Positions 9,323 to 44,266 of a stretch of 64,000 bases of DNA are shown here, piece after piece. A program made the translations under genes and the position numbers. Location: assembly GCF_011045215.1 (NCBI RefSeq), contig NZ_CP049201.1; one strand, given 5' to 3'. The notes under the pieces are model-generated. The model was not told the origin of the DNA and did no database searches. It worked only from the letters and a program-made list of their open reading frames with translations. The DNA comes from Escherichia coli (GTDB lineage: Bacteria; Pseudomonadota; Gammaproteobacteria; Enterobacterales; Enterobacteriaceae). The number at the start of each line of letters is the position of its first letter. The first letter of the stretch is position 1.

Positions 9323-9407
9323 GCCGGATGCGGTGCGAGCGCCTTATCCGGCCTGGGGAATGAGCGATTTGTAGGCATGATAAGACGCGTTAGCGTCGCA
9401 TCAGGCG
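9323..9407. repeat. REP/BIME element (two REP palindromes) between convergent alkA and dgcE
   Basis: gccggatgcggtgcgagcgccttatccggc and gtaggcatgataagacgcgttagcgtcgcatcaggc, typical E. coli REP sequences. Confidence 0.85.
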
Positions 9408-14393: not shown

Positions 14394-16247
14394 ATGAGAC
14401 GATTTCTGACGACGCTGATGATACTCCTGGTCGTGCTGGTGGCCGGGTTATCTGCGTTAGTGTTGCTGGTGAATCCGAATGATTTCCGCGACTATATGGT
14501 CAAGCAAGTTGCTGCACGTAGCGGTTATCAATTGCAGCTCGACGGGCCACTGCGTTGGCACGTCTGGCCGCAGCTTAGTATCCTCTCCGGGAGAATGTCT
14601 CTCACCGCCCAGGGCGCAAGCCAGCCACTGGTTCGCGCCGACAACATGCGTCTGGACGTGGCGCTTTTACCACTACTGAGTCATCAACTGAGCGTTAAGC
14701 AGGTGATGCTAAAAGGGGCAGTGATCCAACTGACGCCGCAGACGGAAGCGGTGCGCAGTGAAGACGCTCCGGTTGCACCGCGCGACAATACCTTGCCGGA
14801 TCTGTCAGACGATCGCGGATGGTCGTTTGATATATCCAGTCTTAAGGTGGCGGACAGCGTGCTGGTGTTCCAGCATGAAGATGACGAGCAGGTGACAATC
14901 CGCAATATTCGCCTGCAAATGGAACAAGATCCCCAACATCGTGGCTCATTTGAGTTCTCCGGGCGGGTTAATCGCGATCAGCGCGATCTCACGATATCCC
15001 TTAACGGTACGGTGGATGCTTCTGATTATCCGCATGATTTAACGGCTGCTATTGAACAAATTAACTGGCAGTTGCAGGGTGCCGATTTACCAAAACAAGG
15101 TATTCAGGGGCAGGGGAGTTTCCAGGCCCAGTGGCAGGAGTCACATAAACGCCTTTCATTTAACCAAATCAGCTTGACCGCCAATGACAGTACGCTGAGC
15201 GGGCAAGCACAGGTCACGCTGACAGAGAAACCTGAATGGCAGCTGAGACTGCAATTCCCGCAACTGAATCTTGACAACCTCATCCCGCTTAATGAAACCG
15301 CGAATGGTGAAAACGGTGCCGCGCAGCAGGGGCAGAGCCAATCAACGTTGCCGCGCCCGGTTATTTCTTCGCGTATTGATGAACCGGCCTATCAGGGACT
15401 GCAAGGCTTTACGGCTGATATTTTGTTGCAGGCCAGTAACGTGCGCTGGCGCGGAATGAATTTTACAGATGTTGCCACGCAAATGACCAACAAGTCGGGT
15501 TTGCTGGAAATTACTCAACTGCAGGGCAAGCTTAACGGTGGACAGGTTTCACTGCCGGGCACGCTGGACGCGACATCAATAAATCCGCGGATAAACTTCC
15601 AGCCACGGCTGGAAAACGTTGAGATTGGTACCATTCTGAAGGCGTTTAACTATCCGATTTCGTTGACCGGAAAAATGTCACTGGCTGGTGATTTCTCCGG
15701 TGCTGACATAGATGCCGACGCATTCCGCCACAACTGGCAAGGACAGGCACATGTCGAAATGACCGACACGCGCATGGAAGGGATGAACTTCCAGCAGATG
15801 ATTCAGCAAGCGGTAGAACGTAATGGTGGTGATGTGAAGGCCGCTGAAAACTTCGATAACGTAACGCGTCTTGACCGCTTTACCACCGATTTGACGTTGA
15901 AGGATGGCGTCGTGACGTTAAACGACATGCAAGGTCAATCGCCTGTGCTGGCGCTGACAGGGGAAGGCATGTTGAATCTGGCAGATCAAACCTGCGACAC
16001 CCAGTTTGATATTCGGGTCGTGGGTGGCTGGAGCGGGGAAAGCAAACTGATTGATTTCCTCAAAGAAACGCCAGTACCGCTGCGGGTTTATGGCAACTGG
16101 CAGCAACTCAATTACAGTCTGCAGGTGGATCAGTTACTGCGCAAACATCTACAGGACGAAGCGAAACGTCGCCTGAATGACTGGGCCGAGCGGAATAAAG
16201 ATTCCCGCAATGGCAAGGATGTGAAGAAGTTGCTGGAGAAGATGTAG
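14394..16247 (+). CDS. asmA: Outer-membrane assembly / lipid transport protein AsmA
   Basis: 617 aa; N-terminal membrane anchor MRRFLTTLMILLVVLVAGLSALVLLV; matches AsmA. Confidence 0.92.
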   Translation: MRRFLTTLMILLVVLVAGLSALVLLVNPNDFRDYMVKQVAARSGYQLQLDGPLRWHVWPQLSILSGRMSLTAQGASQPLVRADNMRLDVALLPLLSHQLSVKQVMLKGAVIQLTPQTEAVRSEDAPVAPRDNTLPDLSDDRGWSFDISSLKVADSVLVFQHEDDEQVTIRNIRLQMEQDPQHRGSFEFSGRVNRDQRDLTISLNGTVDASDYPHDLTAAIEQINWQLQGADLPKQGIQGQGSFQAQWQESHKRLSFNQISLTANDSTLSGQAQVTLTEKPEWQLRLQFPQLNLDNLIPLNETANGENGAAQQGQSQSTLPRPVISSRIDEPAYQGLQGFTADILLQASNVRWRGMNFTDVATQMTNKSGLLEITQLQGKLNGGQVSLPGTLDATSINPRINFQPRLENVEIGTILKAFNYPISLTGKMSLAGDFSGADIDADAFRHNWQGQAHVEMTDTRMEGMNFQQMIQQAVERNGGDVKAAENFDNVTRLDRFTTDLTLKDGVVTLNDMQGQSPVLALTGEGMLNLADQTCDTQFDIRVVGGWSGESKLIDFLKETPVPLRVYGNWQQLNYSLQVDQLLRKHLQDEAKRRLNDWAERNKDSRNGKDVKKLLEKM

Positions 16248-16267
16248 GTTACCAGGTGACCAGTCCT

Positions 16268-16305
16268 GTAGGCCTGATAAGACGCGTAAAGCGTCGTATC
16301 AGGCG
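16268..16305. repeat. REP element
   Basis: gtaggcctgataagacgcgtaaagcgtcgtatcaggcg palindrome downstream of asmA. Confidence 0.85.
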
Positions 16306-16520
16306 TTCGTGGCGGCATCATTATATTCTGAATATGTAAGATCGAAGGCTGTTCCGTTCACTTGATGTTCCTCGCTACTATGGAACGCTCAAGCCGGTGA
16401 ACGTGCCAGGGTGGCTCAATCGCCACCACCCTGGCAACCCGGGCTCCCGGCGGTAAATCGCCGCTGGCGCGGTTCCCTCATCTTATTCCTTTCGGCTATT
16501 GGGTAAAATGGCCGATATCA

Positions 16521-18104
16521 TCACACCTCGTACTCCATCTCGCCATCTTTACGCAGTGGAATAATCTGCACTTTCTGCACGCGATGGCTTTCCACCTGCA
16601 ACGTTTTAAGCAAATAATCCCCCACCTGAACTTCTTCGCCAGGTTTTGGAATACGCTGTAAATATTCCATCAACAGCCCGGCAATGGTGTGATATTCACG
16701 TTTTTCATCCAGCGGCAGCGGCACATATTGCACCAGATCCTCCAGCGGCATATGACCATTCGCCGTCCAGGAACCGTCCGCATTCTTCTGAATATCATGG
16801 CGGGCGTCGATCTCTTCCACTTCGTTCGGTAAGTTACCGGCAATGGTTTCAGTGACGTCACTTAATGTCACAATCCCTTCCACCGAGCCAAACTCATCCA
16901 CCACAAAAGCAAAGTGCGTGCGGGCATTACGGAACTGCTCCAGGGCAGGTAACAACGGCAAGGTTTCCGGGAACACCAGCGGCTGGCGAATCAACACCCG
17001 CAGGTTGAGCGGTTCGCCGCGCAGAGACTGTTGTAGCAGGTCGATAACGTGAACAACACCGAGCAAATCTTCTGCGTCATCACCGTCGGTAACCACCAGC
17101 CGCGTATGCTGATTTCGCTCCAGTAACTGGCGGATCTCGTCTTCCGGCGCGTTGAGATCGATATGCTCAATATCGTGGCGCGACGTCATAATGCTGCTGA
17201 CGGTACGCTGGTTAAGATTTAGTACCCGCTCAATCATCCGCCGTTCCTGCGGATTAAAGATCTGCTGGTTACCATGATCCACCAGCATGGACGCGGTTTC
17301 GGCGTCCAGTTCCGCATCTTCTTTTTGCCCGCTAAGCAGGCGCATTACCGCTTCGGTAGTCCGCTGGCGCAGCGTCTGGTTAGCGGAAAGAAAACGTCGC
17401 CGGTTAAAGATAGCCAACTGATTGAGCGCCTCGATCATCACCGAGAAACCAATGGCAGCGTACAGGTAGCCTTTCGGAATGACGAAGCCGAAACCTTCTG
17501 CCACCAGGCTAAAGCCAATCATCAACAGGAAGCTTAAGCAGAGAATAACGATCGTCGGGTGACTGTTAACAAATTGCGTTAACGGCTTGCTGGCCATCAA
17601 CATCAGGCTGATAGCGATAACCACGGCGGCCATCATGACCAGTAAATGGTCGACCATCCCGACGGCGGTAATCACTGAGTCGAGTGAGAAAATGGCGTCC
17701 AGTACCACAATTTGCGTCACCACGCCCCAGAACTTCGCACCTTTGCGTTGTGTGGGATTATTGCTGTCTTTCCCTTCCAGCCGTTCGTTCAGCTCCATCG
17801 TGGCTTTGAACAACAGGAAGAAACCACCAAACAGCATGATTAAGTCGCGGGCGCTAAAGGTAAACGAGCGGAAGCTGAACAGCGGTTGAGTCAGGGTGAC
17901 CAGCCAGGAGATTGACGCCAGCAGTAACAGGCGCATTAACATCGCCAGCAGCAGCCCGGTAACCCGTGCGCGGTCGCGCTGCTTCGGCGGTAGTTTTTCG
18001 GCGAGGATGGCAATAAAGACCAGGTTATCAATGCCGAGGACCAGTTCGATCACAATCAGCGTGATTAACCCGGCCCAGATAGACGGATCGGCAATCCATT
18101 CCAT
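16521..18104 (-). CDS. yegH: TerC-family membrane protein with CBS and CorC/HlyC domains, YegH
   Basis: Track ORF 16521..18170; start set at ATG 18104 ([16 protein letters not shown]), 527 aa as in K-12 YegH. Confidence 0.88.
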
Positions 18105-18545: not shown

Positions 18546-18584
18546 CAGTGTATTGGTAGCTAGAAAGCCAGGGGCGGTAGCGTG
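18546..18584 (+). promoter_or_regulatory. JUMPstart element with ops site (GGCGGTAGCGTG), RfaH-dependent antitermination signal in the cps leader
   Basis: cagtgtattggtagctagaaagccaggggcggtagcgtg; ops at 18573..18584; about 180 bp upstream of wza. Confidence 0.85.
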
Positions 18585-18762: not shown

Positions 18763-19902
18763 ATGATGAAATCCAAAATGAAATTGATGCCATTATTGGT
18801 GTCAGTAACCTTGATAAGCGGTTGCACAGTACTTCCGGGCAGCAATATGTCGACGATGGGCAAAGACGTCATCAAACAGCAGGACGCTGATTTCGATCTC
18901 GACAAAATGGTGAATGTTTATCCGCTGACCCCGCGCCTGATTGACCAATTACGCCCACGCCCGAATGTAGCGCGCCCCAATATGACGCTGGAAAGTGAGA
19001 TCGCGAATTACCAGTATCGCGTCGGGCCGGGGGACGTTCTTAATGTCACCGTCTGGGATCACCCGGAACTCACCACGCCAGCCGGTCAGTACCGCAGCTC
19101 CAGCGACACCGGCAACTGGGTACAGCCTGACGGCACTATGTTTTACCCGTATATCGGCAAGGTCCACGTAGTCGGGAAAACGCTCGCTGAAATCCGCAGT
19201 GATATTACCGGGCGCTTAGCGACGTACATCGCTGACCCGCAGGTGGACGTTAATATCGCCGCCTTCCGCTCACAAAAGGCCTATATCTCCGGTCAGGTGA
19301 ATAAATCCGGTCAACAGGCGATCACCAACGTGCCACTGACTATTCTCGACGCCATCAACGCCGCAGGTGGCCTGACCGACACCGCTGACTGGCGCAACGT
19401 GGTGTTAACACACAATGGTCGCGAAGAACGCATTTCTTTGCAGGCGCTGATGCAAAACGGCGACCTCAACCAGAATCGACTGCTTTACCCCGGCGATATT
19501 CTCTACGTGCCGCGTAATGATGATCTGAAAGTGTTTGTGATGGGTGAAGTGAAGAAACAGAGCACCCTGAAAATGGACTTTAGCGGTATGACCCTGACTG
19601 AAGCCCTGGGCAATGCTGAAGGTATCGACATGACCACCTCCAACGCCAGCGGCATCTTTGTCATTCGTCCGTTGAAAGGCGAGGGCGGGCGTAACGGCAA
19701 GATTGCCAATATCTACCAGCTGGATATGTCCGATGCGACGTCGCTGGTGATGGCGACAGAATTCCGCCTGCAACCTTATGACGTGGTGTATGTCACCACC
19801 GCCCCGGTTTCCCGCTGGAACCGTCTGATCAATCAGTTGCTGCCAACTATTAGCGGTGTCCGTTACATGACGGATACAGCCAGCGACATTCATAACTGGT
19901 AA
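18763..19902 (+). CDS. wza: Outer-membrane polysaccharide export lipoprotein Wza
   Basis: 379 aa; lipoprotein signal ...LISGCTV; matches Wza. Confidence 0.95.
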
Positions 19903-32924: not shown

Positions 32925-33112
<188 letters not shown>

Positions 33113-33202
33113 AATGAATGCGAAACCGCGGTGTAAATAACGACAAAAATAAAATTGGCCGCTTCGGTCAGGGCCAACTATTGCCTGAAAAAGGGTAACG
33201 AT

Positions 33203-37530: not shown

Positions 37531-37716
37531 GCCGGATGCGGCGTAAAACGCCTTATCCATCCTACGGTTCTGTGCTCGGGACCTGTAGGCCTGATAAGAC
37601 GCGTCAGCGTCGCATCAGGCACTGAATGCCGGATGCGGCGTGAACGCCTTATCCGGCCTACGGTTCTGTGCTCGGGTCTTGTAGGCCTGATAAGACGCGT
37701 CAGCGTCGCATCAGGC
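37531..37716. repeat. BIME cluster (multiple REP palindromes) between wzxC and wcaK
   Basis: Repeated gccggatgcggcgtgaacgccttatccggcctacggttctgtgctcggg and gtaggcctgataagacgcgtcagcgtcgcatcaggc units. Confidence 0.85.
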
Positions 37717-44227: not shown

Positions 44228-44266
44228 CAGTGCTCTGGTAGCTGTAAAGCCAGGGGCGGTAGCATT
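44228..44266 (+). promoter_or_regulatory. JUMPstart element with variant ops site (GGCGGTAGCATT) in the O-antigen cluster leader
   Basis: cagtgctctggtagctgtaaagccaggggcggtagcattg, about 350 bp upstream of the first O-antigen gene; last ops positions differ from canonical GGCGGTAGCGTG. Confidence 0.75.

Follow-up and report, generated by a model that had tools for sequence, protein, structure and literature searches.

The spacer described here separates two convergent genes, asmA (positions 14394–16247, plus strand) and yegH (16521–18104, minus strand), within the window, by which we mean the whole 64 kb stretch of Escherichia coli DNA that was analyzed. Both gene names had been given in the initial annotation, and the open reading frame (ORF) list and RefSeq annotation of identical loci agree with them. 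The stop codon of asmA abuts the spacer; yegH codes for a TerC-family membrane protein, and the K-12 gene is 1584 nt long. The spacer itself (16248–16520) measures 273 bp, and its counterpart in K-12 MG1655 (2,139,486–2,139,758) is equally long and unannotated. Elsewhere in the window there are three tandem SIB RNA (Sib antitoxin) genes on the minus strand (1928–2070, 2256–2398 and 2584–2732), where K-12 has two Sib genes at the corresponding locus. JUMPstart elements occur on the plus strand at 18546–18584 and 44228–44266, the first of them upstream of wza (ORF at 18763), and an algC RNA motif is found at 33149–33198, also on the plus strand.

On the asmA side, the spacer carries a repetitive extragenic palindromic (REP) unit at 16272–16304 (inverted repeat I1), a feature already recognized in the initial annotation. 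Its arms, GCCTGATAAGACGC and GCGTCGTATCAGGC, occupy 16272–16285 and 16291–16304 around a 5-nt loop; each is 14 nt long and they are 93% complementary. Like other REP units it is a GC-rich imperfect palindrome of about 35 nt, of the GCCTGATG...CATCAGGC type, and it is extragenic, lying between two stop codons. In an Rfam scan, the spacer matched a single family, and that weakly: the sub-threshold match, to the REP-derived naRNA4 model, falls on 16272–16304. Five further REP matches (92–95%) are found in the window at about 9370–9407, 32988–33112 and 37582–37716, and the naRNA4 model matches 32992–33062 and 37588–37658. REPs are known to stabilize or end transcripts and to slow 3' exonucleases or polymerase.

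The REP is followed by a segment (16305–16350) that contains the palindrome ATATTCTGAATAT at 16323–16335, was confined to the asmA–yegH locus in E. coli searches, and lies beyond the family profile match described below. Two hairpins come next, both read here on the minus strand. HpE, the terminal hairpin of the family (16355–16403; inverted repeat I6, family helix 9), has an outer stem formed by CGTTCAC (16355–16361) and GTGAACG (16397–16403), which confirms the second inverted repeat reported for this region. HpD (16404–16436; inverted repeat I3, family helices 7 and 8) had been described as a hairpin with a 9-bp stem at about 16405–16437. The hairpin is real and its stem is longer than stated: a perfect 11 bp, in which TGCCAGGGTGG (16404–16414) pairs with CCACCCTGGCA (16426–16436) across an 11-nt loop bearing the conserved motif GGCGAUUG. 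Perfect stems of at least 11 bp arose in 1 of 1000 dinucleotide shuffles of the 273-bp spacer. Folded as RNA, the whole spacer gave z scores of -5.9 (plus strand) and -4.4 (minus strand), and none of 200 shuffles was equally stable. The yegH-proximal flank (16506–16520) is common to the window and to the full-length allele of the spacer.

Both hairpins belong to a dispersed, structured repeat of about 266 nt. Distant blastn searches with the non-REP part of the 451-bp spacer allele found matches in 5425 of 5426 E. coli genomes, at a median of three places and a maximum of ten per genome. Matches of the full allele were 75–86% identical over about 185–250 nt and extended to Klebsiella and Citrobacter; a phage collection yielded no match. 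A family profile HMM of 266 positions, built from nine copies, detected further copies in E. albertii, Enterobacter, Citrobacter, Leclercia and Lelliottia, and no second copy in the 64 kb window. Other E. coli sites of the repeat are the tauA/mmuM, lysO/aqpZ, yohP/dusC, alx/sstT and ybaP/copA spacers. K-12 has intact copies at lysO/aqpZ (about 915,016–915,281, plus strand) and yohP/dusC (about 2,229,122–2,229,388, minus strand), and no copy in its alx/sstT spacer. That K-12 spacer does keep a short fragment resembling the 5' end, GCACCGATGCTGG, beside BoxC-like sequences. A literature search found nothing on the asmA–yegH spacer or on this repeat family.

Several observations concern the distribution of individual copies. 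The yohP/dusC repeat lies in opposite orientations in K-12 and strain MS10711, with unrelated flanks. At four Citrobacter loci, copies of the repeat lie no more than a few hundred bp apart, as head-to-head pairs or clusters, and one such pair is located about 360 bp upstream of GlmY. A contig labelled as a Desulfacinum MAG has an end 97% identical to a Klebsiella copy, probably through contamination or mis-binning. Scanning genome contigs with the pattern AGGCCGGGN{65,85}AGGRATAAG proved too loose, with about 20 true enterobacterial copies among 120 stretches, most of which matched by chance; the pattern matches in Clostridia, Lachnospiraceae and Vibrio were rejected as TwoAYGGAY RNAs, as they fail the Rfam gathering threshold.

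The common structure of the family was examined in alignment A2, which holds 27 full-length copies from at least seven genera. The full-length fold comprises adjacent hairpins with AUGGAU and AGGGAU loops (HpA and HpB), a 4-bp junction stem and longer closing stems (P1a and P1b, the latter with tandem G.A), followed by HpD and HpE. RNAalifold applied to A2 gave compensatory changes in 25 of 48 pairs. In a curated nine-helix structure, 91.7% of cells were paired (37–40% in slid controls), changes on both sides were seen in 32 of 58 pairs (4–9 in slid controls), and the covariation score was 0.367 (0.069 or less in controls); no shuffle reached the observed values. P1a and P1b are backed by covariation in the full copies. 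The covariance check across enterobacterial copies that the initial annotation had proposed favors the two hairpins present in the window as well: in helices 7–9, 12 of 18 pairs change on both sides, made up of 9 of 11 in HpD (helices 7 and 8) and 3 of 7 in HpE (helix 9), where 99.5% of cells are paired. Across subfamilies HpD keeps its loop motif GGCGAUUG while the stem sequence varies. On the yegH-sense strand there are 26 G.U pairs vs. 7 A.C pairs, an excess that points to a single-stranded form of that strand; this fits RNA, and single-stranded DNA is also compatible.

Full-length copies resemble TwoAYGGAY, an RNA motif described from human gut metagenomes, Clostridiales and some gamma-proteobacteria, and functionally orphan (Weinberg et al., 2010; PMC2864571 and its supplement). 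They match the whole Rfam model RF01731 (positions 1–168) at 28–36 bits, and scores of full-length copies span 25.6–36.4 bits, where the gathering threshold is 43; in the window spacer, the model had no match even at E ≤ 10. The likeness extends to the adjacent AUGGAU/AGGGAU hairpins, the short junction stem, the long P1 and the tandem G.A in the stem. The enterobacterial family differs in that the second loop frequently reads AGGGAU, with R in place of Y at position 2, in having an added small hairpin together with HpD and HpE, and in behaving as a dispersed, polymorphic repeat. The window copy differs further, as it has neither the two AYGGAY loops nor the long closing P1, and so retains none of the defining hairpins. 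We treat the family as a probable variant of TwoAYGGAY with an added 3' two-hairpin module; it is a non-member by the Rfam criterion, and the proposed link draws on sub-threshold scores.

A CsrA-binding role has been suggested for TwoAYGGAY (PMC4333381), and the motif shares the clan label CL00106 with PrrB_RsmZ in the output of the Rfam search. The full-length enterobacterial copies are similar to the CsrB/CsrC/Rsm RNAs in displaying GGA in hairpin loops, as well as two single-stranded GGA motifs. The family differs from them in having two loop sites, and in that no promoter or terminator was identified, while the window copy has lost both loop sites. CsrC and CsrB have 9–18 or more loop sites. 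The CsrA SELEX consensus, which Dubey and colleagues reportedly gave in 2005 as RUACARGGAUGU, closely resembles the loop sequences UACAGGGAUGU and CACAUGGAUGU; as a lead, we regard these loops as putative CsrA sites.

The window contains only the 3' part of this repeat. The profile matches 16351–16504 on the minus strand (nhmmer E 3.6e-32), the same strand as in K-12, and the match represents the 3' 155 nt of the family (positions 112–266 of 266); alignment with the full-length ST131 allele and with paralogues gives the same placement. Together with the profile match, perfectly paired HpD and HpE identify the window copy as belonging to the family. Upstream of HpD on the minus strand, column mapping onto A2 and the curated structure locates at 16454–16490 the orphaned 3' strands of P1a (CGAUUUA) and P1b (GAUGAGG), the small hairpin HpC (CCGCGCCAGCGG) and the invariant single-stranded motif AGGAAUAAG. 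The P1a and P1b strands fall at 16454–16482, and their 5' partners are deleted. The HpD loop and the 3' strand of P1a each contain the motif GGCGAUU, which explains the direct repeat AATCGCC at 16418 and 16456. Family positions 1–111 are gone altogether. They include HpA and HpB, which are the two AYGGAY hairpins, along with the junction stem and the 5' strand of each closing stem (P1a and P1b), so that the complete architecture of the repeat is lacking. The two single-stranded GGA motifs are retained; GGA sites in loops occur solely in full-length copies.

The missing sequence is accounted for by a single difference from the ST131 allele: that allele has 178 bp more than the window form, with AT(T/C)GGGTA repeats (TACCC(A/G)AT when read on the other strand) on either side of the extra segment. 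Alignment of the window and K-12 with ST131 places the junction at 16498–16505, where the sequence is ATTGGGTA (minus strand TACCCAAT). Judging from the paralogues, the 178-bp difference appears to be a deletion in the window and K-12 rather than an insertion in ST131.

The initial annotation had taken the hairpins to be probably just terminator structure for the two convergent genes. In favor of termination, the hairpins do lie between convergent genes and are very stable, as the z scores above indicate, and REPs can stabilize or end transcripts. Against it, no U/T run follows any of the hairpins on either strand, and a terminator scan of 16248–16520 found no terminator-like site on either strand. 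The genomic context of the other copies is also informative. A crude ORF-based survey called both flanking genes for 21 of 26 copies, of which nine lie between convergent genes, 12 between co-directional genes and none between divergent genes. The nine convergent copies and the lack of divergent ones would suit a terminator; of the 12 co-directional copies, however, seven are sense and five antisense to the flanking genes. This spread over convergent and co-directional spacers, in both orientations, argues for a tolerated intergenic repeat and not for a terminator or a 3'-UTR element of fixed orientation. Moreover, some E. coli strains manage without either hairpin, as in the 67-bp spacer that holds only the REP and in the toxin–antitoxin alleles described below. 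Both hairpins being helices of a repeat that also occurs in non-terminator contexts and in either orientation, the terminator assignment does not hold, and we consider it quite unlikely that they serve to terminate asmA and yegH.

The flanks of different copies are unrelated to one another, full-length copies have no promoter or terminator consensus, and no ORF is conserved across the family, in which 1-nt indels are common. By eye, no terminal inverted repeat of the kind that marks MITEs was seen in A2 (5' end CAGCG.../CTGCACCG... vs. 3' end ...GTGAACGGAAC). No clean target-site duplication can be read from a comparison of filled with empty sites, since the repeat itself is not the only difference between them.

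One ORF in the window copy deserves separate mention. On the minus strand, 21 codons (MREPRQRRFTAGSPGCQGGGD), with the first base of the ATG at 16481, are preceded by AAGGA at a good Shine–Dalgarno spacing (AAGGAAUAAGAUG), and the frame is intact in K-12 and ST131. In paralogous copies, though, the start position reads CUG, UCG, CCG, GCG or ACG; the frame shares in the family-wide absence of a conserved ORF and the frequent 1-nt indels; and the apparent Shine–Dalgarno sequence is the family's invariant AGGRAUAAG motif. We therefore rejected it as a gene, and likewise as part of a type I toxin–antitoxin system, on the grounds of the non-conserved start codon and the lack of a family-wide ORF; that it encodes a small protein is highly improbable.

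To place the window form among its relatives, the spacer was surveyed in 5,426 complete E. coli genomes. The K-12/window form (273 bp) is the commonest, at roughly 45% of genomes as estimated from evenly spaced rows, and the full element (451 bp), found in ST131 and others, is at least 80% covered in 1,425 genomes. In strain DS566-2, the spacer is reduced to 67 bp with the REP as its sole content. The ZF34-type allele (292 bp) results from a second, independent deletion that removes the core between other short repeats, and the occurrence of both this and the K-12-type deletion indicates recurrent decay at the asmA–yegH locus. Even so, the truncated form outnumbers every other allele in E. coli and is therefore not obviously being purged.

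About 910 of the 5426 genomes have no REP and instead carry an intact RelE/ParE-type toxin (112 aa) with an HTH antitoxin (96 aa). These genes stand between yegH and asmA in place of the REP and repeat, and their carriers include large genomes of about 5.4 Mb. Strains FDAARGOS_497 and EM10-18-28 have a hybrid allele, in which an IS110-family insertion accompanies a toxin gene whose N-terminus is cut off by the repeat. These alleles raise the idea that the structured part of the spacer is a leftover of a toxin–antitoxin module or of the IS110-family element, given that in these two strains the sequence abuts the truncated toxin gene and carries the insertion. We find this scarcely credible: the intact toxin–antitoxin allele shares no sequence with 16305–16504, the insertion element entered a pre-existing repeat cleanly with a 2-bp AT duplication, and the sequence belongs to a multi-locus family. 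Two narrower versions were also discarded, namely that 16305–16350 (ATATTCTGAATAT plus TATAAT) is a remnant of a toxin–antitoxin operator or promoter, since the upstream region of the intact allele is unrelated, and that the IS110-family element supplied the structured region as its non-coding RNA end, since this element is a clean secondary insertion.

Whether the remnant could still act, as a minus-strand small RNA (sRNA) or a 3'-UTR element that binds, e.g., a protein through its two single-stranded GGA motifs and HpD/HpE, bears on the earlier suggestion that the spacer could hold a small RNA. That suggestion is right insofar as the sequence descends from an RNA-like structured element, and fails in that the 5' half is missing from the window copy. 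The conserved, covarying helices of the family, the G.U bias toward the minus strand and the retention of the invariant AGGAAUAAG motif all speak for function, as may the low divergence from ST131. The shared spacer differs from ST131 by 1.55% (4 of 258 positions), where 4-fold sites differ by 7.4% in yegH and 8.4% in asmA; relative to K-12, the values are 1.83% (5 of 273) for the spacer, 1.95% for yegH and 4.03% for asmA. Constraint is one way to account for the low spacer divergence from ST131, and ordinary intergenic selection or local recombination could explain it as well. On the other side, 111 of 266 family positions are gone, so that neither AYGGAY hairpin remains and every closing helix has lost its 5' strand; a consensus scan of the spacer found no sigma-70-like promoter, in keeping with the earlier remark that promoter evidence was lacking; the element is absent from many strains; and the independent ZF34-type deletion suggests decay. 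We judge a functional remnant very unlikely.

The 273-bp asmA–yegH spacer is a mosaic of intergenic repeats, neither a purpose-built terminator nor an sRNA gene. Our best explanation, to which we would give a probability of roughly three in four, is that it consists of a REP and a 5'-truncated, inert relic of the TwoAYGGAY-like structured repeat. The sequence comparisons show a REP unit next to asmA, followed by 46 bp of locus-specific sequence and then by the 3' 155 nt of the repeat on the minus (yegH-sense) strand; an apparent 178-bp deletion between the TACCC(A/G)AT microhomologies has left the copy with neither AYGGAY hairpin and with only the 3' strand of each closing stem. That the copy is inert is the inferred part of this explanation. 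Any remaining effect would be passive: in read-through transcripts, 3' exonucleases or polymerase may be slowed by the very stable hairpins and, on the asmA side, by the REP. Most likely, then, the window copy has no present-day role or at most contributes passive 3' structure to yegH transcripts, and the low importance first assigned to it seems appropriate.

The repeat has points in common with other small intergenic repeats of enterobacteria. Like REP/BIME elements, it is extragenic, multi-copy, structured, variable among strains and absent from divergent spacers in our sample, and REP and the larger repeat are both specific targets of IS110-family elements. It differs from them in its length of about 266 nt with nine helices, its 2–10 copies instead of hundreds, the absence of sequence similarity and the lack of a known RAYT-type transposase. 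For REP, the element concerned is IS621, which is described as targeting it (Choi et al., 2003, as cited in PMC3184786; see also PMC11208160). ERIC/IRU, BoxC, RSA and RU-3 are likewise small, non-coding, structured intergenic repeats with a patchy distribution among strains (PMC3184786, PMC5172473). BoxC-like sequences adjoin some copies of our repeat. To our knowledge, the ERIC primer sequences bear no resemblance to it. RU-3 is 103 bp long. RSA is 150/151 bp long with six copies in K-12 (PMC5172473), and the ~266-nt family occupies only three places in a K-12-like genome; since these copy numbers disagree, the two are probably distinct, and identity of the family with the K-12 RSA repeat is unlikely.

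The IS110-family element mentioned above (transposase WP_000868863.1) is 1,384 bp long and was found at 340 places in 180 genomes. At the repeat it inserts into the AGGGAU loop of HpB, as ACAGGGAT | IS | ATGTTACC. The position is identical in each of the five copies examined, and each shows a 2-bp AT duplication. These copies cover four kinds of site: yegH/asmA (two strains), ybaP/copA, lysO/yohP and dusC/aqpZ. The element has 11-bp subterminal inverted repeats (ATGGACGCTCC), and its long right end holds GAGGTAACA, which is complementary to the right flank of the target (chance expectation about 0.1). The last two sites come from strains N32 and LWY24, which contain the recombinant junctions lysO-[5' half]-IS-[3' half]-yohP and dusC-[5' half]-IS-[3' half]-aqpZ. 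Such junctions imply an inversion of about 1.3 Mb between the copies that are oppositely oriented in K-12 (at about 0.915 and 2.229 Mb), with endpoints that we take to be roughly symmetric about the replication terminus.

The asmA–yegH spacer can accordingly be dropped as a candidate terminator or sRNA, and the analysis accounts for the REP, the two hairpins, the direct repeat and the CCCGGG palindrome in a K-12 spacer that has no annotation. Taken alone, the window copy is unremarkable. Its family represents a previously unrecognized form of an established, functionally orphan motif, and K-12 carries intact relatives of that motif. The repeat family is also a previously unremarked, specific target of an IS110-family element of the bridge- or seek-RNA type, and lies at apparent inversion junctions. 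A bolder proposal, which we put forward as speculative and think unlikely, is that the enterobacterial repeat is a functional transcribed RNA, whose two loop GGA motifs might, for instance, be bound by a CsrA dimer; that it doubles as the dedicated landing pad of an RNA-guided IS110-family transposase and as a substrate for megabase inversions; and that the K-12 allele at asmA–yegH is a natural loss-of-function in which HpD and HpE may still shape the 3' end of yegH mRNA. Since K-12 combines copies of a strongly covarying family with CsrA-like loops and natural deletion alleles, the function of the motif is testable in the best genetic system. If the proposal is true, the two intact copies and the truncated one in K-12 would offer a ready-made genetic system for a motif that has been an orphan since 2010.
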